Positions 500-46,792 of a stretch of 46,792 nt of DNA are shown here, piece after piece (within the stretch, counting starts at the first letter, position 1; the number at the start of each line of letters is the position of its first letter). This DNA comes from a virus, in IMG/VR virus record IMGVR_UViG_3300045988_109821, positions 1-46,792 of that record; one strand, 5' to 3'. The notes beneath the pieces are model-generated. The model made no database searches, was not told where the DNA came from, and was given only the letters and a program-made list of their open reading frames with translations. A program made the position numbers and the translations under genes.

Positions 500-1009
500 A
501 TGACAGAACAGGAACTAGATGCCATCTTTGGTACCAGTGCTTTATTTGATAAGGATTCTTCAGAATATAAGGAAGCAAACATATATTCGAGTATTGAGAA
601 AGAGAAAAGGAAACTCACTTTAGAGGACCCTTTATCTGTAGCACTATCTCAGGCTACACATTTAGATGACAATAAGAAAGAAAGATATAACTATTTAGCC
701 AGTCTGTATACAGCTGACATGGCGAAGAATATATTTAAGAATCAGTTTGATTTAGCTGAGAAGTATAGTAATACTACAGTTGATGAGTGGAATGACTTTT
801 TAGCTGATAGAATCGTAAGTGTATATATACAGAAGCACAAAAGAACACTTTTAAAAGCTGCAGCTGAGGATAACTTAGCCAACCCCACAGCTAAAAATAA
901 GCGTGATAACTTACAACTTATTAAGAATCTAGAGGAACAAGAGCAGCTAGAGAATAATAGAAACATATGTATTATAAGAATACCTGATATCTATGACGAT
1001 GCCTCATAG
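500..1009 (+). CDS. Hypothetical protein, possible terminase small subunit (first gene of the packaging module, upstream of terL).
   Basis: 169-aa ORF starting at ATG 500 with a GGTGA RBS. Called by position only, no recognisable motif. Confidence 0.35.
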   Translation: MTEQELDAIFGTSALFDKDSSEYKEANIYSSIEKEKRKLTLEDPLSVALSQATHLDDNKKERYNYLASLYTADMAKNIFKNQFDLAEKYSNTTVDEWNDFLADRIVSVYIQKHKRTLLKAAAEDNLANPTAKNKRDNLQLIKNLEEQEQLENNRNICIIRIPDIYDDAS

Positions 1010-1499
1010 GTAGCATAGAGTATATAATCAACAGACAGAAGTTATCAGGACGTCAGCATTATAGCCACAGCTTTGGAAACTATAATGTGAAACACTATGT
1101 GAGATTACATATTCTATGGTGCCTATAAGGTGCCAGGTAAAGCCACTTTTTCATTTACTTTAGTGCTACCCTCGTAGGTAGCATAGATTAGATATTCCAT
1201 ATTAACTATGGTCGATTAAAAAGTTGGTGAAAGTCCAGGTAATATCTATTCTATGGTGCTTATAAGGCACTAGAACTGATTTATTAGATTAGTTCTTCAA
1301 ATATTTTAAAGTGTTTGTTTATTCCCTATTGGTACGGGAATGAACTATCTCTAGTAGATAGTGATACTGAATAATAAAGGAACGCAATTAGACGTATTCT
1401 AATTAAAGGTAACTCAGACGAACATATTTTATTGAACTCGAGATAACAATAAAAACAATTCTAGGGAGAGAAGTGACGAAAGATTTTATTATTTAGTAT

Positions 1500-1521
1500 C
1501 AGTATCTATTAAGGATACTAA
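1500..1521. repeat. 22-bp element CAGTATCTATTAAGGATACTAA, which contains the palindrome AGTATC...GATACT. This is copy 1.
   Basis: Exact second copy at 1893-1914. Confidence 0.7.
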
Positions 1522-1892
1522 CAGGAGTTGTAAATAAATATTTTCCTGTTCCATATAGTTTACTTTTAGTAGTAACTATATTGTTTGATGTTTTTATATG
1601 TAACGCCAATTACATATAAAGAAATGCCTAGAAATAGTGGAGTAGCTTATACGCTGTATTTGTTATTCGAGATTGTTATATAACAATTGCATTACCTTTA
1701 ACAGGTAGTGTCTAGTGATATATAAATTGGGTATGCTGGGAAATGAAAGGGTGCAATATTAATTAAAAACTTGCAAGATTGATTAATATTCCTAGTGAAG
1801 AAATATAGGTTTGCAATCGACCAAATATTTAATCATGACTAATGAAGTAAGAATTGCTATATTAGTATGTAAAAAGCCTTTATATCATTAGA

Positions 1893-1914
1893 CAGTATCT
1901 ATTAAGGATACTAA
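1893..1914. repeat. Copy 2 of the 22-bp palindromic element.
   Basis: Identical to 1500-1521. Confidence 0.7.
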
Positions 1915-2067
1915 AATCTCCAATCTAATTATATACTGCTTTTTAGCAGTATGCTGACACTGAATTATACTTAAAACTTTTTAACCATCCTTATTTTAAA
2001 GCTATTTGTAATAGTTCGTTCAAAAACCATTTTGGTGTCAGCATAGTGTTAAAAAGGAGGTGAAACT

Positions 2068-2950: not shown

Positions 2951-3664
2951 ATGGGCTCAGCTAAATCAAACTCAAGTGTTATGGAGATTATAAACCATGC
3001 ACTTACTGTACCATATGGGCAGACAATTATGTTAGCACAAACCCTAAAGCAACTTTCTAAGGCAATTATGCCTATTTTTGATGAATATTTACCACGTAAA
3101 TTTGTGGAAAAGTGGACTGATACTAAAGCTGAAATTGAAATAGTCCTTACTAATGGACACAAAATAACAGGATTTGCCAGTGATGATGAAGAAAAGTTTC
3201 GTTCTATGAATATAACAGCTTTCTATATAGAAGAAGCATCAGGTATAAGTCCTAAAATCTACCAGGAGTGTGTTAGACGTTTAAGAAACACACATGGTAT
3301 TATAGATGGTGTTGAACACTTTGTTGGTATTATATGTTCAAACCCAGCTCAAGGACCTATAAGAGATTTACTGTTTACAGCAGACCACATAGAAGGAAGT
3401 AAGTCTATTGCAGAAACTGTAAAAATGTATGAGAAGAGAATTACAAATAGAAACCCAGATTTGGCTGCATTTCTATCTAGTAGTAGAGATAATCCTTACT
3501 TACCACCTGGATTTGTACAATCTGTTGTAAATTCACTAACTCCAGAACAAGTAAGACTTTATGTAGACTGTATTATAGAGTATGCAGAGGGTGCTGTTTA
3601 TCCTGATATATTAAGTCATACATGTGAGCCATTTCCAATACCAGATGATTGGACTAGATATATT
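2951..3664 (+). CDS. terL: Terminase large subunit, exon 2 (ATPase domain; GSAKS Walker A remainder and AFYIEEAS Walker B-like). The 3' boundary is uncertain, somewhere in 3664-3679.
   Basis: Reading frame is open from 2927, with no start codon context of its own. It is continuous in frame with exon 1 after intron removal. Confidence 0.6.
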
Positions 3665-4637
3665 GCACATGACCCTGGTGAACATATAAAAATGTGCTAT
3701 ATTTAGTTTGTAATATAAGGAAATAATCTTTACATTATCCTGTGTATATGTTAAAATTATACCAGGGAGATGATAGAATGTTAGAAAATTATTTAATAAC
3801 TAAAGAAGGATTCATAATATCTTACAAAAATAAAGAACCTAGAGTGCTTAAAGGACAACTTGATAGAGATGGTTATTATAGGGTTGAAATAAGAGAAAAT
3901 AAAAAACGTAAATGGTGCTATTTACATAGGTTAGTAGCTATGCAGTATATACCTAATCCTGAAAATAAACCTGAAGTCAACCATATAAACGGAATAAAAA
4001 CTGATAACAGAGTTGAAAATTTAGAATGGGTTACGAGAAGTGAAAACGCAAAACATGCTGTTTTAAATGATATGTGTAAACAACCCAAAAAAGTTAATCA
4101 GTACAACACAAATGGTGAATTTATCAGACAATGGAATAGTATAAAAGAAGCTAAAAAGTGTCTAAATATAAAAAATGCACATATAAGTCAAGTCTGTCAG
4201 GGGCAAAGAAAAACAGCAGGTGGTTATATTTGGAGATATGATACTAATAAATCAAAATTAAATAAAGAAAAGGTTAGAGAAATAAGAGAAAATAAAGAGA
4301 ATCTTAACCGAGTCGCTTTAGCAAAGAAATATGGGGTATCATGCAGTTGTATACAACATATTCGTAGAGGAAGAACTTGGAAAGATGTAATGCCAGGTGA
4401 GTTTGGTGACAAACTCTAAGAAAACCGAAGAAAAAAACTGGAAGGCTAAGTCAGAAATGATATGCTAATCAGAGGTGAAGGACTTACTAAGTAAGCCCAG
4501 CCACAACGCATAGGAACTGAAAAGATATAATGTTCCCACGAGGCTTCGGCTCTCAGTCTTGCTGAGATGAAAAGATATGCTGGACTTATAGGAAACTATA
4601 AGAAGTAGAGGATAAAAAGCCTTTACGTTAACAAACG
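3665..4637 (+). mobile_element. Second intervening sequence in terL, a putative group I intron with a 5'-located HNH endonuclease ORF. Boundaries are approximate.
   Basis: The terL frame is interrupted. The region 4420-4640 is non-coding and structured, with Q/R/S-like elements (AATCAGAGG, CCACAACGCATAGGAAC, AAGATATAATGTTCC). The 9-nt ATGACCCTG occurs in frame at both 3669-3677 and 4642-4650. Confidence 0.45.
3742..4419 (+). CDS. HNH homing endonuclease (NUMOD4 plus HNH_3 plus C-terminal DNA-binding module).
   Basis: Motifs HRLVAMQYIPNP...VNHINGIKTDNRVENLEWVTRSEN. The C-terminal NAHISQVCQG motif is shared with the HNH at 37258-37836. Confidence 0.85.
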   Translation: MYMLKLYQGDDRMLENYLITKEGFIISYKNKEPRVLKGQLDRDGYYRVEIRENKKRKWCYLHRLVAMQYIPNPENKPEVNHINGIKTDNRVENLEWVTRSENAKHAVLNDMCKQPKKVNQYNTNGEFIRQWNSIKEAKKCLNIKNAHISQVCQGQRKTAGGYIWRYDTNKSKLNKEKVREIRENKENLNRVALAKKYGVSCSCIQHIRRGRTWKDVMPGEFGDKL

Positions 4638-5306
4638 ATTAATGACCCTGCAGCTATTTTATTAGGAGCACAAGACCCAAATACAGGTATAATCTATTTC
4701 TATAGAGAATATTATAAGACAAATCAGGTGCTAGCACAGGTTGCTCCTGAGTTTAAGAAAATGATAAGTGATATACCACAGGGTTGCTTGCATATGCCCC
4801 TTATAGACCCATCTGCAGATAAGAGAAGTAAGACAACAGGTCGTACATATAAACAACAACTACAACTTGAACATGGTATAGTGACAAAATGTGCTATAAA
4901 TAATATTGAGGATGGTATTCAGAGGGTTAAAAATATGATGTATGCAGGTTTACTTGTATTCTTTAATAACTTGACATACACTTTACGTGAGGGTTGTGAG
5001 TATAGATATCCTACACAAGAAGAAAGAAATAAGAATAAAAATCTAGGTGAGAAGCCTATAGATAAGAATAACCACTTAATGGACTGTTTAAGATATATTT
5101 GTCAAGAAGTCCCTTATGACTATATAGATATGAAACGTGTTGCATATTCAAATTACATAGAATTTTTTGATAAGCAAAGAAGAGGAAGTGCAGACATAAA
5201 GAAATCATTGTCTTTTAGGGAAATAATTGATATAATAAATAGGGATAATATAGAAGAGAGCATGAACACAAGACAGTGTTGTGCGGGAGGTTATAGTATA
5301 TGCTAA
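4638..5306 (+). CDS. terL: Terminase large subunit, exon 3 (RNaseH-like nuclease domain). The 5' boundary is uncertain, somewhere in 4638-4651.
   Basis: The frame opens at 4632 with (I)NDPAAILLGAQDPNTGIIYFY, and contains NHLMDCLRY (a typical terminase nuclease-domain motif). No start codon or RBS of its own. Confidence 0.6.
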   Translation: MNDPAAILLGAQDPNTGIIYFYREYYKTNQVLAQVAPEFKKMISDIPQGCLHMPLIDPSADKRSKTTGRTYKQQLQLEHGIVTKCAINNIEDGIQRVKNMMYAGLLVFFNNLTYTLREGCEYRYPTQEERNKNKNLGEKPIDKNNHLMDCLRYICQEVPYDYIDMKRVAYSNYIEFFDKQRRGSADIKKSLSFREIIDIINRDNIEESMNTRQCCAGGYSIC

Positions 5307-5484: not shown

Positions 5485-7476
5485 ATGGAAGAAGAAAACA
5501 AATTAGAACAACAGTTAATTAAACTTATTAATGAGGCTGTTGACTTCAGAAGTAGCAACAGAGATGAAGAATATCTTACAAATATGGCACATTATGAAGG
5601 TTTGCAATGGAATCTAGCTGAAAATAAAGATAATTCTCCATTTATGTTAAAAAGTGACATAAACCACTTAAAAAATGCTGTTGATTTACGATTGGGCAGC
5701 TTATTTGCGGAAAGCTACTATGGTGAATTAGAACCTTTAAGTCCAAATGACATAGAATCTATAAATACTTTAAATAATTTGTATAGAAATGAATGGTCTA
5801 GACTTAATGCAGATGATAGAGTTGAAGCAGCCATAAAAAACGGATGCTTACAAGACAATGGTTACACCGAAATAACATTTGACGAAGGTGCTATCTTTGG
5901 TGGAACAGGAACTCGTAGAGAAGGTTCTATAGTTCTTAGGGATTTGAGTACAAGTAATGTATATTTAGACCCAAAAGCTGAAAACATTGATGAGTGTGAA
6001 TATATTGTAGTAAAATCTCAAAAGTCAAAGAACTGGATAAAGAGAAATAGACCTGATTGGTTAGATAAAATAAAAGAGAGACAAATTAAACCTGCTGGTT
6101 ATACTAGTAATGATAATGGAAACATCTATATAGGACGTGATTATACAAAAAGTTCTGCTGAAGAGTATACTCTTGATACAGTATATAGAAAATATGTAGA
6201 AGATATGGACATTGACGTTATTGATGATAATGGAAATCCTGTCATTATTGATAAGGAAACAGGCGAAACACAAAAAGAAACAATTAAAGTAACACGTATA
6301 AAAGTACATTACTTAATTTCTGATATGCTTTTAGACACAGATGAAGACTATCCATTTGATGAATTCCCTATAATTCCATTTCAATGGCAACCTATTCCAC
6401 AAAGTCCATATGGTATACCTCTAATAAGAGGACTTACTACTCCTCAAAAAGTAGCCAACTTAATTGAAAGTGCTGCTAATAATGTTGCTATGCACTACTC
6501 AACACCTACATGGATAGTAAGTGAAGAAAGTGGACTCGATATTAATAAAGTTGCAAAACTTGCTAATGCTGTTGGTATGGTATGGAAAGTATCTGGGGAT
6601 GCTTCAAAAGCTATTAAGCAAATGGATTATCCAGATGTAAATGAACAATTAATAGGTATTAAGAATAGCTTTGTTGATAATATTCAGACTTATTCAGGTA
6701 TTTCACAAACTTACATAGGTAATATAGGAACAGCAGGTTCAACAGCAGAAGGTACTAATACAGCTGTTAATAGAGCCACTGTTATAGATAATCCTGTTCT
6801 TAAACAAATTGAGAAATATGTTGAGAAATTATCTCGCATGATTATTAGATTTATGACTAGATATTATAAAAATCAAACAATCTATATAAGAGATACTAAA
6901 AAGACTGAACAAGGTGAATATACATTTAAGCAATTTTTCATGAAAGATACTTATGAAAATATTAATTATGATTTTACAGTTAAATTAGCTGGACGTAGTA
7001 AATCTGATAAGAATAGACAATATAACTTAATGAAAGATTTATATACTATTCAAAATCAATATAAAGATGCAAATAGAGTTATTAACATACCTGATTTAGT
7101 TAAAGCTGCTCAATTAGACAACTACGATGAAATGTTTAAGAGATTTAGTGATATGACAGAAGAAGCATTTAATGAAAAAGCTGATATGATTGTTCAAATT
7201 ATGAATATAGGTGGTACAATTACACCAAATGGGCAACCTCTAATAACAGCAGAAGAAATGCAACAAGGTATCATAGATGTATTAAATGATGATGGTGACC
7301 TAACAACTGTTGAAAATATCTTTAATACATATAAAGAATATCAAACACAAATCACAGAAATGAAGAATGCTTTAGCTGCACAAGGACAACAAAAAGCTAT
7401 TAATAATGTAAATGCACAAAACAATGCTTTAGAAGGACAACTTACAGAACGTCTACAATCTATAAATAACAATTAA
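5485..7476 (+). CDS. Probable portal protein (663 aa).
   Basis: Size and position directly after terL; RBS AAAGGTGATG. No motif-level proof. Confidence 0.5.
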   Translation: MEEENKLEQQLIKLINEAVDFRSSNRDEEYLTNMAHYEGLQWNLAENKDNSPFMLKSDINHLKNAVDLRLGSLFAESYYGELEPLSPNDIESINTLNNLYRNEWSRLNADDRVEAAIKNGCLQDNGYTEITFDEGAIFGGTGTRREGSIVLRDLSTSNVYLDPKAENIDECEYIVVKSQKSKNWIKRNRPDWLDKIKERQIKPAGYTSNDNGNIYIGRDYTKSSAEEYTLDTVYRKYVEDMDIDVIDDNGNPVIIDKETGETQKETIKVTRIKVHYLISDMLLDTDEDYPFDEFPIIPFQWQPIPQSPYGIPLIRGLTTPQKVANLIESAANNVAMHYSTPTWIVSEESGLDINKVAKLANAVGMVWKVSGDASKAIKQMDYPDVNEQLIGIKNSFVDNIQTYSGISQTYIGNIGTAGSTAEGTNTAVNRATVIDNPVLKQIEKYVEKLSRMIIRFMTRYYKNQTIYIRDTKKTEQGEYTFKQFFMKDTYENINYDFTVKLAGRSKSDKNRQYNLMKDLYTIQNQYKDANRVINIPDLVKAAQLDNYDEMFKRFSDMTEEAFNEKADMIVQIMNIGGTITPNGQPLITAEEMQQGIIDVLNDDGDLTTVENIFNTYKEYQTQITEMKNALAAQGQQKAINNVNAQNNALEGQLTERLQSINNN

Positions 7477-8640: not shown

Positions 8641-8752
8641 GACTTTTTAGTTAAAATATGGTAAATTATATTTAGAGTTATGATACTGACTCCCATAATA
8701 CTAAGGTCTGACCGAAAAGACATTAAAAAAGAGCGAGAAAGGAAGGTATAAT

Positions 8753-9502
8753 ATGGAAAATGTATTTGAAGAATTATTGACAGGAGGTACAACTGTTGAT
8801 GATGAGGCTGGTACTGATGAACTAGATTTTGACCACTCATTTGATTTGTCTGATGATGACATAGCAGATGAAGGCGAAGAAGCTGGGGATGAAGGAGAGC
8901 AAGTGGCAGAAGATGAAGGAGAAGGTACACCAAATGAACCTACTAATAATGCTTTTGCACAAATGCGAACTCAAAACAAAGAGTTTCAAAACAAGCTTCA
9001 AGAATTTGATGATTTAGCTAAACAACTTGGTATGAAAGATGCCGATGAGTTTATTAAAAAAGCTAAAGAAGCTCAAATAAAAAGAGATGCTGCTAAAAAA
9101 GGTATTCCTTTAGAAGTTGCACAAGAACTTGAAGAAATGAGAAGTTTAAAAGACTCTATTATTGCTGAAAGACAAAATGCAGCAGCAGAGTTGAAAACAA
9201 GAAATTTTGTATCTAATCTGCAAGAGTTTGTAGATGCTAACAAGCTATCAGACCAAGCAGTAGATAAATTAAGCCAAGATTTAGAGAAGGATGGATTTGA
9301 ATTAGATTCACTTATGGCTATGCCTAAGACAGCTCTAAATAAAATCCTAAGTGCCTACGTTGGTACTAATTATCAAAAAAATCTGGAAAGAAAAAATACT
9401 ATCAGAAAAGAGTTACCTATTAATCAATCTTCAAAAATTGACACTGTGTCTTTAAATAAAGATATAGACACATTAGCTAAACAATTAGCAGGAAAATTTT
9501 AA
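8753..9502 (+). CDS. Putative scaffolding protein (very acidic N-terminus, helical remainder).
   Basis: Position before the capsid gene. Composition D/E-rich then coiled-coil-like. Confidence 0.4.
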   Translation: MENVFEELLTGGTTVDDEAGTDELDFDHSFDLSDDDIADEGEEAGDEGEQVAEDEGEGTPNEPTNNAFAQMRTQNKEFQNKLQEFDDLAKQLGMKDADEFIKKAKEAQIKRDAAKKGIPLEVAQELEEMRSLKDSIIAERQNAAAELKTRNFVSNLQEFVDANKLSDQAVDKLSQDLEKDGFELDSLMAMPKTALNKILSAYVGTNYQKNLERKNTIRKELPINQSSKIDTVSLNKDIDTLAKQLAGKF

Positions 9503-10567: not shown

Positions 10568-10915
10568 ATGGCAACCAATGTAAATACTACAACATCGGTA
10601 TTTAAAGATAGTAAAGCCACTGATGCTGAATTATCAGCTAAGGCTATGAAAGAAAATAAAAATTTGGTAAGTAAAAAAAGAGTACCATTTAAATGTGAGG
10701 TAGCATACAATGCCTTATATCCAAATGGGTTTGAATCTACATGTCAAGGTATTTATATATTTTTGATATTTGATGGCAGAACAGTAGAGCTTCCAGAATT
10801 TATAGCTGATTATGTAAAAGCGAAAATTGAAAAGAAAGCTTTAGCAACTTTGGATAAAAAGCATAGAAACACTACTAAAAAACAAGACTATCTTGGTATG
10901 GAATATGTAGGATAA
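10568..10915 (+). CDS. Hypothetical head-associated protein (115 aa).
   Basis: RBS AAGGAGG; capsid operon. Confidence 0.4.
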   Translation: MATNVNTTTSVFKDSKATDAELSAKAMKENKNLVSKKRVPFKCEVAYNALYPNGFESTCQGIYIFLIFDGRTVELPEFIADYVKAKIEKKALATLDKKHRNTTKKQDYLGMEYVG

Positions 10916-10916
10916 T

Positions 10917-10950
10917 AAAAGGCTATCTTTGGATAGCCTTTATTTTTTAA
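10917..10950 (+). terminator. Rho-independent terminator.
   Basis: Stem AAAGGCTATC/GATAGCCTTT followed by ATTTTTTAAA. Confidence 0.75.
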
Positions 10951-46038: not shown

Positions 46039-46389
46039 TTACTTTCCTAAAACTTCATTGATAAAGTTATCTAATAACTTATTAATTTTAACAATCTTTT
46101 TATCATATGCTAAATCACTATTATATATGTTTTTTGCTTTTTCATTATATTTATCTACAACACCCACTGCAGAATATTCACCAAATGGTCTATAACCTGT
46201 CACAATTACAGTATTATAGTTAACTTGGTAGATGTCGGCATTCCATCCATAGACACCTTTAGTATAATATCTTGCTTCTTGTCCTTTCAATAAATACCAT
46301 GCAGAGCAATAGCCCACACTTATCACATTTTTATAGTTTTTAATAATTTCCTTTTTAGTTGTTTTTGTTTTCATTTTAATTATCCCCAA
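46039..46389 (-). CDS. Hypothetical early protein (116 aa, Tyr/Gly/Trp-rich).
   Basis: ORF with RBS. First large gene of the early arm. Confidence 0.45.
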   Translation of the reverse strand: MGIIKMKTKTTKKEIIKNYKNVISVGYCSAWYLLKGQEARYYTKGVYGWNADIYQVNYNTVIVTGYRPFGEYSAVGVVDKYNEKAKNIYNSDLAYDKKIVKINKLLDNFINEVLGK

Positions 46390-46440
46390 TCTAATTATAT
46401 TGTGCCTATTTTTAGGGAACAGGCAAACCCTAAATAATTA

Positions 46441-46673: not shown

Positions 46674-46792
46674 ATTTTTTTTTCAAATTTGATTTTGATA
46701 TTTTTTTTAATTATATAAATATATTATTGTAATTATATAATATAACTGTATAATGAAAACCAATTAAACAAAATACGACAAAAAATCGTAAA
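46674..46792. repeat. Right copy of the direct terminal repeat (or circular-assembly overlap).
   Basis: Identical to 1-119. Confidence 0.9.

Follow-up and report, generated by a model that had tools for sequence, protein, structure and literature searches.

The stretch of viral DNA analysed here, IMG/VR record IMGVR_UViG_3300045988_109821 (46,792 nt, referred to as the window, to which all coordinates apply), contains a gap of about 1 kb at 1010–2067 between two plus-strand genes. On its 5' side lies an ORF of 169 aa (500–1009, +), which is conserved in relatives. On its 3' side, terL begins with a GTG start codon at 2068. Its exon 1 (2068–2271, +) encodes a zinc-ribbon N-terminus up to ...LQIGG, and exons 2 and 3 follow on the same strand at 2951–3679 and 4638–5306, the gene being interrupted by two introns with HNH genes. 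The sequence-only reading had labelled the flanking genes terS and terL. The second label stands, whereas the upstream ORF matched no family among the Pfam, PHROG and PDB profiles. Its identification as TerS was therefore dropped, and the name terS-like used below is a positional guess. Just 5' of this ORF, a sigma-70-like promoter (TTTACA-17-TG-TATAAT; 456–484, +) matches 11 of 12 consensus positions and is, judging by its sequence, the likely source of a transcript crossing the gap. No intrinsic-terminator-like sites were found in 1–2300.

Further along, a hairpin that resembles a terminator and has a T-run lies inside the late operon of the window (about 10918–10950), and the only tRNA of the window is a tRNA-Cys (20704–20780). 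The genome encodes the recombination genes ERF and YqaJ as well as the phage's own primase, SSB and polymerase. Within the window, no transposase or integrase genes, no candidate RNA-binding regulator and no cas or Nop-domain genes were found. The ends of the window share an identical overlap of 119 nt, which may reflect circular permutation or terminal redundancy of the genome, but also an assembly artefact.

The gap had been described as non-coding and rich in repeats and hairpins, and the analysis bears this out. It holds no ORF of at least 60 aa in any frame or genetic code. Since TAA, TAG and TGA are all plentiful in all six frames, the rescue of a hidden ORF through an alternative genetic code with reassigned stop codons is ruled out. 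The repeats are real overall, with some of the positions first given for them being off by 1 to 7 nt. Exactly two copies of the 22-mer CAGTATCTATTAAGGATACTAA exist, located at 1500 and 1893 as reported, against a chance expectation from shuffles of 0.01 matches even at 3 mismatches. The sequence TATTCTATGGTGCYTATAAGG is located at 1110–1130 and 1247–1267, and both copies of TTCTATGG exist, the first at 1112 and the second at 1249 rather than 1248. The two copies of TAGGTAGCATAGA are likewise present, starting at 1007 and 1175 instead of 1008 and 1182, and the first includes the stop codon of the upstream ORF. The perfect hairpin TGCTACC-CTCGTA-GGTAGCA was confirmed at 1164–1183 rather than 1168–1187, and the hairpin ATTCCC-TATTGGTAC-GGGAAT at 1321–1341 rather than 1322–1342. 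What had to be given up is the treatment of these repeats as separate items, as they are arms and loops of one repeated unit. Another repeat, ATCyCCAATCTAATTATAT, is common to 1916 and 46382. At 46382 it forms the RBS or leader region for a gene on the minus strand, and a connection of this repeat with the unit was not established.

The gap is a head-to-tail array of five paralogous copies of one structured module, U0 to U4, together with decayed remains. All five copies are on the plus strand, co-oriented with the terS-like and terL genes, and cover about 78% of the gap at irregular spacing, each with a length of about 100 to 230 nt. The order of elements is constant: a P1 hairpin of 6–9 bp is directly followed by a P2 stem of 13–17 bp that closes an interior, and then by a P3 hairpin of 6–7 bp. 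The interiors are freely variable, ranging from 44 to 154 nt in the window and from 1 to 154 nt across the module family. Arm sequences, those of P2 included, vary from copy to copy in the same genome, and the basal stems of U0–U4 reach 25–33 bp in the predicted folds.

The individual copies differ in their preservation and in the evidence that defines them, which comprises folds, exact strings and two covariance models, R1 and R2. U0 (993–1142, +; R2 57.4 bits, E 2.5e-12; R1 43.9 bits; supported by fold and exact-string check) has a weak P1 overlapping the end of the terS-like ORF, whose TAG stop (1007–1009) lies within its 5' arm, a P2 formed by 1016–1030 and 1104–1118 around an interior of 73 nt, and TGGTGCCTATAAGGTGCCA as P3. 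U1 (1160–1279, +), also supported by its fold and exact strings, scores 75.8 bits with R2 on the plus strand (E 2.6e-17) and 28.5 bits on the minus strand. Its P1 is the perfect hairpin at 1164–1183, its P2 pairs 1184–1197 with 1241–1254, and its P3, GGTGCTTATAAGGCACT, represents a dead Shine-Dalgarno (SD) sequence; in L027 and L017, the orthologue of U1 is the live terL leader. It is followed by a linker (1270–1345, +) that folds into three small hairpins, including ATTCCC-TATTGGTAC-GGGAAT, and contains no recognisable module.

U2 (1340–1525, +) was delineated by an inverted repeat (I1; 33 nt, 85% complementary), by its fold, by exact strings and by a z score of -4.4. It comprises the P1 hairpin ACTATC-TCTAGTA-GATAGT, a P2 of about 17 bp with an interior of 104 nt, and the first 22-mer (1500–1521) as P3. 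As neither R1 nor R2 recovered it, U2 rests on manual curation. The adjacent hairpin-rich stretch (1526–1686, +) is possibly a decayed module: besides the inverted repeat I7 and its fold, it shows a P1-like TAGTTAC-TTTTAG-TAGTAACTA at about 1553–1581, a hairpin at 1588–1625 and a weak R2 match at 1582–1633 (16 bits). U3 (1686–1918, +; R2 25.1 bits, E 1.4e-3; fold and exact strings) consists of the P1 hairpin CATTACCT-TTAAC-AGGTAGTG, a P2 pairing 1709–1723 with 1880–1892 around an interior of 154 nt, and the second 22-mer (1893–1914) as P3. Its short-interior orthologue in L006 (4621–4714) scores 59.8 bits. A promoter role of P3 and the 22-mer was considered and not adopted, since only the U3 arm matches sigma-70 (10/12, 1889–1917) and this match is not conserved in relatives. 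The last copy, U4 (1930–2069, +; z = -6.0; R1 46.8 bits, R2 35.3 bits; folds), is the live terL leader, with the P1 hairpin ACTGC-TTTTTA-GCAGT, a P2 pairing 1951–1960 with 2035–2045, and covarying orthologues in L003, L007, L008, L016, L017, L022 and L027. A shared interior cargo was not found for the window units, as the interiors of U0–U3 were singletons among 133 interiors in 86 families.

Recovery of the modules does not depend on the sequence of the window itself. R2 was built solely from other phages, excluding any sequence of the window clade, and applied to the 46.8-kb window it recovered U1, U0, U4 and U3 and no other site. Half-motif nhmmer profiles likewise limited the motif to 1002–2059 (+) in the window. 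With its filters off, R1 matched only U1 and U4, because long interiors were penalised; default settings and R2 performed better. A pattern scan with GGTAGCATNG N{30,60} TCTATGGT yielded many chance matches, from which the true members were sorted out with R1. A home-made descriptor combining a hairpin with an adjacent long-range stem gave 79 and 87 matches on the two strands and, being too permissive, was replaced by the covariance models.

The plus strand of the gap is more structured than expected by chance, with z scores in 160-nt segments of -6.0 at 1920–2079, -4.4 at 1360–1519 and -3.4 at 1520–1679, compared with only -2.7 for the minus strand of the terL leader. From the same nucleotides that build the local hairpins, the module can alternatively form one irregular hairpin of about 30 bp. 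Within this long hairpin, one G.G mismatch is invariant and three G.U pairs are conserved; in the local hairpins P1 and P3, these very positions form Watson-Crick pairs. Among 21 curated units, pairing in P2 reaches 97%, with compensatory changes at 13 of 13 pairs, and the extended helix is 90% paired with a covariation of 0.73, compared to 0.28 for shuffled and at most 0.21 for slid alignments. The extended helix is 91–93% paired on sets of 65 and of 62 distinct units, a value reached in 0 of 500 shuffles, and RNAalifold predicts it unaided, with compensatory changes at 17 of 21 pairs. P1 is 86% paired, with compensatory changes at 9 of 9 pairs, and its 5' half is absent from the model structure. 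These covariation counts take in related sequences, and as P1 varies mostly between two subfamilies, part of the signal may be phylogenetic. P3 folds in 56 of 65 units, and the long hairpin is dominant in the predicted ensemble for 119 of 140.

Several features tie this structure to one strand. The G.G mismatch is found in 65/65 and 62/62 units, and the three wobble pairs are G.U in most of them. Among 1x1 mismatches inside Watson-Crick helices, G.T outnumbers A.C by 32 to 10 and G.G outnumbers C.C by 25 to 0. Covariance model scores on the sense strand are roughly double those on the antisense strand, and relative to the local coding strand 57 of 65 units have the same and 2 the opposite orientation. 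The earlier suggestion of a structured ncRNA is thus upheld as regards strand-specific, covarying helices of RNA type; it does not hold as regards a single ncRNA gene, the structures being cis modules in a terS-like-to-terL transcript.

U4 is the translation initiation region of terL, in which the SD and start codon take the place of the 3' half of P3. The SD (GGAGG, 2056–2060) is situated at the foot of the long hairpin, where its predicted partner within P1 is the pyrimidine-rich 5' half plus the loop, as part of an extended hairpin of about 30 bp that pairs CUGCUUUUU with AAAAAGGAG. According to the fold, opening the SD costs 6.7 kcal/mol. None of the eight distinct live leaders leaves its SD unpaired: the pairing is partial or complete, and the opening costs amount to 4.5–11.1 kcal/mol.

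The proposed comparison with related phages showed that the modules are conserved and covarying while their number is variable. Five copies in the window compare with six in L001, which is identical to L005, and three in L006, so that copy number and interiors vary even between near-identical genomes. Against a 99%-identical relative, the stem flanks are conserved and the interiors are unrelated, and the deletion joint in L006 falls inside a repeated GGTGCCTATAAGG motif. Both flanking ORFs are complete in the relatives, with 0 to 1070 nt between them, and L019 has no spacer at the terS-like/terL junction. Together with the three copies in L006, this indicates that most copies are dispensable at this junction.

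Outside this clade, the module family populates intergenic DNA of numerous unrelated phages, all uncultivated, and is found chiefly in operons of structural genes. It was found in about 100 viral contigs, between genes and co-oriented with them: 5' of terL, terS, scaffold, tape-measure and early genes, 3' of portal genes, and often beside tRNAs. The contigs are of both siphovirus and podovirus type, the adjoining TerL proteins belong to two unrelated PHROG families and the adjoining scaffold proteins to at least four families. Single contigs carry dispersed copies at several loci as well as tandem arrays. The module core is far better conserved than the flanking genes and includes an exact 20-mer common to 88 contig stretches. 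Placement is precise, as the unit starts 0–17 nt past the upstream stop codon in about 20 cases and the SD and start codon replace P3 at about eight independent junctions. In L153, one unit exactly spans the gap between the major-tail and tape-measure genes, and in L157 a tRNA is nested in a unit whose P2 forms the extended acceptor stem of that tRNA. About 12 units lie directly 5' of an intrinsic terminator, an arrangement that would suit processing and, just as well, a 3'-UTR function or antitermination.

Despite this distribution, the module is apparently undescribed to date, as searches of the available literature by sequence strings and by topic did not return it. None of the 4227 models of Rfam 15 matched the window at gathering thresholds, and scans of the window region and L001 at E<=10 gave only chance miRNA-like hairpins. 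In 12 other unit-bearing loci, Rfam detected only tRNAs. The Rfam and tRNA searches that had been suggested for 1010–2067 itself gave no Rfam family and no tRNA (ARAGORN, RF00005), and tmRNA and ribozyme searches of the region had no match. A hammerhead-like string, CUGACGAG...GAUAAG, in L001 and L006 was dropped for want of an Rfam match. Among cultured phages, megablast and blastn of the region, as well as blastn of a canonical unit against INPHARED, returned nothing or chance matches in Vibrio phage genes, and a TerL scan of genome contigs returned no real relative.

Taken together, the module is most likely a cis-acting mRNA element for translation control and for processing or stability, a role that we infer from sequence and predicted structure. 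As an explanation of the gap as a whole, an array of structured modules acting as RNA in cis is the best one available, and we give it an even chance of being correct. The array would be transcribed from the promoter at 456–484 within the terS-like-to-terL mRNA. In the long-hairpin fold, it would repress terL translation or render it conditional. The same hairpin could be a natural substrate of a double-strand-specific endonuclease, e.g. host RNase III. After a cut in P2 or the extended stem, P1 could close into a protective hairpin at the 3' end of the upstream fragment and P3 into a 5' hairpin of the downstream fragment, so that the late mRNA would be split into segments of unequal stability. 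The P2 stem may serve as a stalk accepting any apical cargo, once a real tRNA. Copies may be gained and lost by recombination between the conserved flanks of 20–30 nt, which the phage's own ERF/YqaJ system could catalyse. Two observations qualify this account. Four of the five window copies precede no gene, and a translational role cannot account for those four. In addition, an exact 20-mer in 88 stretches exceeds the need of a plain RNase III or stability hairpin; such conservation suggests that the module has a specific partner or has spread horizontally. A more far-reaching version, which we put forward tentatively, is that of a portable bistable RNA stalk that is swapped horizontally and combines coupling or gating of the following gene via its SD, punctuation of the late mRNA with self-capping hairpins on both products and the display of arbitrary apical cargo, ranging from a few nt up to a tRNA, to be expressed with the late mRNA.

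Horizontal spread is also the basis of a somewhat unlikely alternative, in which the module is a selfish palindromic repeat similar to MITE, REP or BIME DNA, multiplied by recombination or transposition with no benefit to the phage and tolerated between genes owing to its compact fold, and the live terL leader is merely a gene start that was invaded. The strong conservation of the core relative to the flanking genes, its presence beside unrelated TerL and scaffold families in sipho- and podovirus-type contigs, the dispersed and tandem copies and their differing number in near-identical genomes all favour it. So do the shape of the unit, a multi-copy, extragenic long terminal inverted repeat as in MITEs and REP/BIME elements, the lack of a following gene for most window copies and the presence of ERF and YqaJ. 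However, it has to contend with the sense-strand bias of 57 to 2, with G.U pairs and a G.G mismatch conserved on one strand alone, and with the precise placement between stop codon and SD, the SD being built in at about eight independent junctions. Moreover, the window encodes no transposase or integrase, and no target-site duplication was seen by eye at the array borders. Selfish spread and RNA function can coexist and are not mutually exclusive. It is unlikely that the module acts uncleaved as a binding site for a protein or RNA polymerase, i.e. as a put- or EAR-like antiterminator or the operator of a host or phage RNA-binding regulator, and in this way, read as RNA, modifies transcriptional read-through or translation. 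Loops of P1 and P3 and stem flanks conserved at the sequence level, together with an invariant mismatch and wobble pairs, are typical of recognition features, and tandem copies could raise occupancy. The position early in the late operon, about 0.5 kb 3' of the promoter, the roughly 12 units immediately 5' of a terminator and the terminator-like hairpin of the late operon would suit antitermination, which nevertheless does not account for the units that lie right at start codons, follow portal genes or enclose a tRNA. The window offers no candidate RNA-binding regulator, and neither the sequence nor the structure of the known put and EAR RNAs is related to that of the module; Rfam gave no match.

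The strand-specific signal can also be read at the DNA level, since G.U pairs and strand bias would fit hairpins in a single-stranded lagging-strand template too. Such an ssDNA signal, formed by the plus strand as lagging template or rolling-circle intermediate and used for ssi/sso-like priming, replication or recombination, equally predicts strand-specific hairpins with G.T pairs, and primase, SSB and polymerase are all encoded by the phage itself. The cumulative GC skew is lowest at the ends of the window and peaks at about 26 kb, which fits bidirectional replication from near 0, by which the plus strand would be the lagging template over 0–26 kb. Tandem stacks of three to six adjacent signals are unexpected for such a role, and the exact stop-to-SD/start fit and the embedded SD are RNA-level features; we regard it as quite improbable, noting that gene orientation is confounded with replication direction, so that sequence alone cannot separate this reading. 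The sequence-only reading had further proposed a pac or terminase-recognition region, in which the repeats would be TerS binding sites where packaging begins. The location between the presumed terS and terL, the repeated motifs and the 119-nt end overlap are in accordance with it, but the distribution of the module largely refutes it: units also occur at portal/scaffold and major-tail/tape-measure junctions, at early genes and tRNAs, with several loci per contig, and L019 has no spacer. Compensatory changes keep pairing rather than sequence, P2 arms differ between copies of one genome, and the identity of the terS-like ORF is itself putative, which leaves this role very improbable. The last proposal, a degenerate third intron without an ORF, and its variant of decayed gene remnants can practically be discounted, despite the two HNH introns of terL and an ORF of 94–95 aa in the corresponding interval of L002 and L003. 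No group I or II model matched 980–2100 at E<=10, while the true terL intron at 2216–2453, as a positive control, scored 66.5 bits with the group I model (RF00028). The gap lies between two genes, outside any coding sequence, tblastn with the 95-aa ORF found nothing in the window, all frames contain the three kinds of stop codon, and about 78% of the gap consists of modules.

Several known systems resemble the module in part. The RNase III processing hairpins of T7 (R0.3 ... R18.5) lie between genes, and base-paired processing stalks surround rRNA precursors. For the B. subtilis scRNA precursor, a base-paired processing stalk is described as well (PMC1935012). Like the T7 R-sites, the module is intercistronic in long polycistronic phage mRNA, within a co-transcribed operon, and present several times per genome. 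Both are irregular hairpins of at least 20 bp, corresponding to no fewer than about two helical turns, and have conserved interruptions and a stem whose structure is kept more than its sequence. The rRNA and scRNA stalks enclose a stable RNA, as the module in L157 encloses a tRNA. In contrast to these systems, with which it shares no sequence or model similarity, the module has two flanking hairpins that compete with the long stem, an interior of 1–154 nt, tandem stacking and a distribution over unrelated phages; its cleavage by RNase III is putative.

Among phage elements, the SAS/ESAS of Cluster K mycobacteriophages consist of a 13-bp SAS at the start codon and 17-bp inverted repeats with a spacer of 4–13 bp, and are suspected to have a translational function (PMC3203893). 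They share with the module the position 5' of the start codons of some phage genes, a nearly uniform orientation, imperfect inverted repeats flanking a variable spacer and conservation across related phages. They occur in high-GC actinophages, whereas the module has another sequence, other dimensions and another host range, so that the resemblance is functional only; tandem stacks, an alternative P1/P3 fold and large interiors are not reported for them (PMC3203893). The PeSL cassettes of T4-type phages are promoter-plus-terminator composites flanking protein-coding genes (PMC2839356, PMC4122927). Here too, short conserved intergenic stem-loop motifs flank variable segments and act as recombination points, and insertion, deletion or replacement between the motifs separates close relatives. 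The variable segments of the module, however, are non-coding hairpin interiors, and the unit has no conserved promoter.

The REP/BIME, Correia, RUP and BOX-type repeats of bacteria belong to the chromosome, where they are found either way round, and for several of them a transposase or target duplications have been identified; folded as hairpins in mRNA, these repeats can alter its stability or serve as RNase III cleavage sites. They are, like the module, multi-copy palindromes in transcribed intergenic DNA that form tandem arrays and vary in copy number by strain, while the module is found in phage genomes, almost always in sense orientation and with an integrated SD. HK022 put and B. subtilis EAR are cis-acting antiterminator RNAs with one or two copies per operon. 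They parallel the module as structured cis RNAs of long operons, in sense orientation and 5' of terminators, with no likeness in sequence or fold, and an effect of the module on termination is hypothetical. A CRISPR or TIGR guide-RNA array was rejected given units of 120–232 nt, irregular spacing, differing arms and the lack of a cas or Nop-domain gene.

Non-coding DNA in phages is usually waved off as promoters, terminators or junk, and this gap holds a conserved, covarying module that neither gene callers nor Rfam detect, which is relevant for genome annotation. Copy-number differences in near-identical genomes, the invariant G.G mismatch and the SD within the stem provide experimental handles. 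Given that a tRNA can be nested in a stalk, small RNAs that have so far escaped recognition may be present among the variable interiors. If the portable-stalk reading is true, the stack in the window is a five-cassette island, and its interiors of 44–154 nt could be small functional RNAs. The module marks junctions where expression must shift, such as terS/terL, portal/scaffold and major tail/tape measure. If it controls translation or mRNA processing there, it would be a general, transferable expression device of the phages of uncultured low-GC hosts and a ready-made part for phage engineering.

The 1058 nt between the stop codon of the upstream ORF (500-1009, + strand, 169 aa) and the GTG start of terL at 2068 contain no ORF, as the sequence-only reading had claimed, and the abundance of TAA, TAG and TGA in six of six frames excludes recoding for this gap. 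Its label for terL was likewise correct, whereas 'terS' for ORF 500-1009 comes from position only, as no family or structure match is recognisable. All repeats and hairpins it listed exist, although several coordinates were 1-7 nt off; the 22-mer repeat is exact at 1500 and 1893 (chance expectation 0.01). The direct and inverted repeats of the gap, among them CCTCRTAGGTAGCATAGA and its reverse-complement partner TCTATGGTGCYTATAAGG (inverted repeat I3), form one system. Folding gave five successive units on the + strand, each a long irregular hairpin with a basal stem of 25-33 bp: U0 (998-1142), U1 (1159-1278), U2 (1340-1525), U3 (1687-1918) and U4 (1930-2070), the terL leader. Their limits were set by exact strings, combined with our own curation for U2, and together they account for 824 of the 1058 nt. 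The rest of the gap (1279-1339 and 1526-1686) holds small hairpins that are possibly decayed units.

Each unit consists of a small hairpin (P1), a stem of 13-17 bp immediately 3' of it (P2), which encloses an interior of 44-154 nt, and a second small hairpin (P3). The perfect hairpin noticed earlier is P1 of U1, the 22-mers are P3 of U2 and of U3, and GGTGCYTATAAGGYRC is P3 in both U0 and U1. In U4, AAAAAGGAGG and the terL GTG start stand where the 3' half of P3 would be.

In an alignment of 21 curated units with trimmed interiors, 97% of P2 is paired and all 13 of its pairs show compensatory changes; for P1 the figures are 89% and five of six pairs. An alternative extended helix, in which the 3' half and loop of P1 pair with the 5' half and loop of P3, is 90% paired in the same alignment and has a covariation score of 0.73, compared to 0.28 for shuffled alignments and at most 0.21 when the partners were slid. 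A G.G mismatch occupies one fixed position in all but one of the 21 units. Two larger alignments gathered by covariance model, comprising 65 units and 62 distinct units of other phages, are 91-93% paired, carry the G.G in 65/65 and 62/62 units and show G.U at three pairs in the majority of units. RNAalifold predicts the extended helix unaided, with 17 of 21 pairs compensatory. Among model-gathered units, P1 is 86% paired and 9/9 of its pairs are compensatory despite its 5' half being modelled as unpaired, a count that, like all pairing and strand counts here, is inflated by related sequences, with P1 variation mainly between two subfamilies. P3 folds in 56/65 units and is absent where a Shine-Dalgarno sequence (SD) or terminator takes the place of its 3' half. 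The long hairpin prevails at equilibrium in 119/140 units. The best argument that both folds matter is that P1 and P3 place the mismatched Gs and wobble partners of the long hairpin in Watson-Crick pairs.

Four measures of strand asymmetry are consistent with each other. Within Watson-Crick helices, 1x1 mismatches are G.T rather than A.C (32 vs 10) and G.G rather than C.C (25 vs 0). Covariance models score the sense strand roughly twice as high as the other, and orientation matches the local coding strand in 57/65 units and opposes it in two.

Related units were gathered from IMG/VR contigs by a gapped pattern scan and the exact 20-mer of the 5' arm, TAGGTAGCATAGAGTAGATA, which is present in 88 stretches. 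With a first covariance model, about 90 loci yielded full-length units scoring 35-62 bits; these often came as two to three tandem copies, and some contigs carried them at sites far apart. A second model, built solely from foreign units, retrieved U1 (75.8 bits, E 3e-17), U0 (57.4), U4 (35.3) and U3 (25.1, E 1e-3) and nothing else in the 46.8 kb window, with at most 32 bits on the reverse strand; the hand-curated U2 was not retrieved. The units sit in intergenic DNA, starting 0-17 nt past the upstream stop codon in about 20 cases. SD and start codon replace P3 at about eight independent junctions, and an intrinsic terminator directly follows about 12 units. Downstream genes encode head scaffolding proteins (several PHROGs), the portal-adjacent phrog_14606, TerL of two unrelated families, a bona fide TerS and the tape-measure protein, while portal, major tail protein and RusA are among the upstream ones. 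A single unit exactly spans the gap between major-tail and tape-measure genes in one contig (L153), and units flank the terL-portal pair on both sides in two others (L205, L191). Neither Rfam 15, whose search the sequence-only reading had proposed, nor 50,697 cultured-phage records contain the family, and no description was found in the searchable literature.

In 12/56 loci, units have tRNA genes no more than about 270 nt away. In contig L157 (8908-9059), a unit encloses a genuine tRNA (RF00005, 44.5 bits), assigned by ARAGORN and RF00005 to tRNA-Arg(ACG) with 91-93 nt, and the top of P2 is the acceptor stem. T-arm boxes of GGTTCGAATCC type occur in the interiors of L164, L168 and L172. In L205 (9272-9764), L152 (6376-7548) and L073 (10248-10548), modules are interspersed with tRNA genes, either in the non-coding island that precedes terL or next to an array of nine tRNAs; the order in L205 is tRNA-Gln, 16 nt, unit, unit, 60 nt, tRNA-Arg, 13 nt, terL. 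The interiors are extremely diverse (133 in 86 families), and those of U0-U3 in the window are unique. An interior of about 56 nt (AACCTGTTCTATGAGGTTGACTATA..CAGTAGAACATTGGGAAAATATAGTTC) is common to units of at least seven contigs (L001 U1 at 6636-6691, L022 U4, L157 at 8742-8879, L163, L164, L167 and L179). It has no match in Rfam and may form a hairpin-loop pseudoknot (GUUCUA/UAGAAC).

Searching with the upstream ORF and the TerL N-terminus yielded about a dozen related contigs. The upstream protein is well conserved across all relatives (46-100% identity), and its gene invariably lies ahead of terL. The spacer between the two genes measures 183-370 nt in L016, L007, L017, L008 and L006, 425 nt in L027 and 1067 nt in L001 (identical to L005). 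In L003 and L002 it comprises an ORF of 94-95 aa plus 160-430 nt; this conserved basic ORF (MALARVKKRSENLTYGD...; L002 6513-6797, L003 6465-6752) precedes the terL leader and has no trace in the window, where modules take that interval. The comparison with related phages that had been suggested revealed a U4-type unit adjoining the terL SD in every relative with a spacer, with differing stem sequences and preserved pairing, whereas the genes overlap in L019 (spacer of about 0 nt). All eight distinct live leaders have the long hairpin as their minimum-energy fold, and the SD at its foot is partly or fully paired, with a computed opening cost of 4.5-11.1 kcal/mol.

U1 has its orthologue in the live leader that L027 and L017 carry (GCTACC..GGTAGC ATWGAGTAGATATAT ... 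ATATCTATTCTATGG TGCTTATAAGGGAGG..ATG). Therefore, TGCTTATAAGGCAC of U1 is a dead SD that has become a hairpin, and the window array stacks up different terL-leader alleles, with only the last one still serving a gene. The upstream ORF is 99-100% identical between the window, L001 and L006, yet the arrays differ sharply. L001 has six units with P3-linker-P1 segments near-identical to those of the window and unrelated P2 arms and interiors, and L006 has three units and a deletion joint inside the repeated GGTGCCTATAAGG motif. These differences indicate fast turnover via conserved flanks, which the ERF annealing protein and YqaJ exonuclease encoded in the genome could power.

The contig is complete, circularly assembled and phage-like, with a GC content of about 30%. 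Its ends (1-119 and 46674-46792) are 100% identical over 119 nt. Instead of a true terminal repeat, this may reflect the k-mer overlap that an assembler leaves on a circular or permuted genome, and the actual length would be 46,673 bp. As far as about 26 kb the + strand carries the structural genes; past that point, replication and early genes are on the - strand. The nearest cultured relative is the Paenibacillus podophage API480, with a portal identity of just 27%. Two introns with HNH genes divide terL into three + strand exons (2068-2271, 2951-3679, 4638-5306). The first matches a group I intron model with 66.5 bits at 2216-2453 in an E-value scan only, not in the whole-window gathering scan, and interrupts the Walker A motif (..LQIGG / MGSAKS). 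The second (3680-4637, 958 nt, HNH/NUMOD gene at 3778-4419) does not match this model even at E<=10. TerL residues 1-68 (2068-2271) and their counterparts in relatives form a conserved CxxC...CxxC zinc-ribbon segment (weak Lar_restr_allev match, E 0.0025), an unusual N-terminal extension of this clade's TerL ahead of Walker A. Elsewhere, a 31-mer (AAAAAGTCCACTTATAGGTGGAAAAATACAC) is perfectly duplicated in tandem at 19150-19211, each copy with the hairpin GTCCAC-TTAT-AGGTGGA. A 29-nt repeat (ATCYCCAATCTAATTATAT...), whose reverse complement has a TATAAT box, occurs at 1916-1944, between U3 and U4, and at 46382-46410, in the leader or ribosome-binding region of the first gene on the minus strand, which starts near 46374. 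Within the structural operon, a strong terminator-like hairpin (AAAGGCTATC-TTTG-GATAGCCTTT, then a T-run) occupies the short gap 3' of ORF 10568-10912 (10918-10950), which bears on a read-through or antitermination alternative.

Among the roles previously considered for the gap, a structured RNA agrees with the covarying, strand-asymmetric repeated units. A pac site was rejected since the units also occur at other junctions in other phages, and an intron was rejected by model tests. Alongside the observed anatomy, covariation, strand bias, SD embedding, distribution and copy-number turnover, a mechanism can be proposed. A strong promoter lies at 456-484 with no terminator between it and terL; the array would be transcribed from there and act in cis as RNA, and the long hairpin of U4 would limit or condition ribosome access to terL. 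TerL is required in much lower amounts than head proteins. The long hairpin would also be the type of substrate cut by RNase III-like enzymes, after which P1 and P3 might fold back into hairpins at the new ends, shielding both products. Such a scheme would account for why two competing folds are conserved, which is otherwise odd, and for why units are placed at junctions with a change in expression level. Both the nested tRNA and the freely varying interior fit a 'processing stalk'.

This cis-acting RNA model leaves unexplained why the sequence is so strongly conserved between unrelated phages and why four window copies serve no gene. Both observations point to horizontal spread or selfish multiplication of the unit, or to a specific trans-acting partner that binds it, and either is compatible with a role in cis. 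Judged from sequence alone, a single-stranded-DNA signal is a less likely alternative.

Functionally near are T7-type RNase III sites and rRNA/scRNA processing stalks, the SAS/ESAS motifs of Cluster K mycobacteriophages (PMC3203893), the PeSL cassettes of T4-type phages (PMC2839356, PMC4122927) and bacterial REP/BIME-like repeats, but the module is not a member of any of them. Broadly, it is an intercistronic structured element or repeat. Its novelty lies in bringing together a bistable three-hairpin/long-hairpin design with an invariant G.G mismatch, an SD-bearing variant, an apex that tolerates cargo, stacking in tandem and a wide horizontal distribution.
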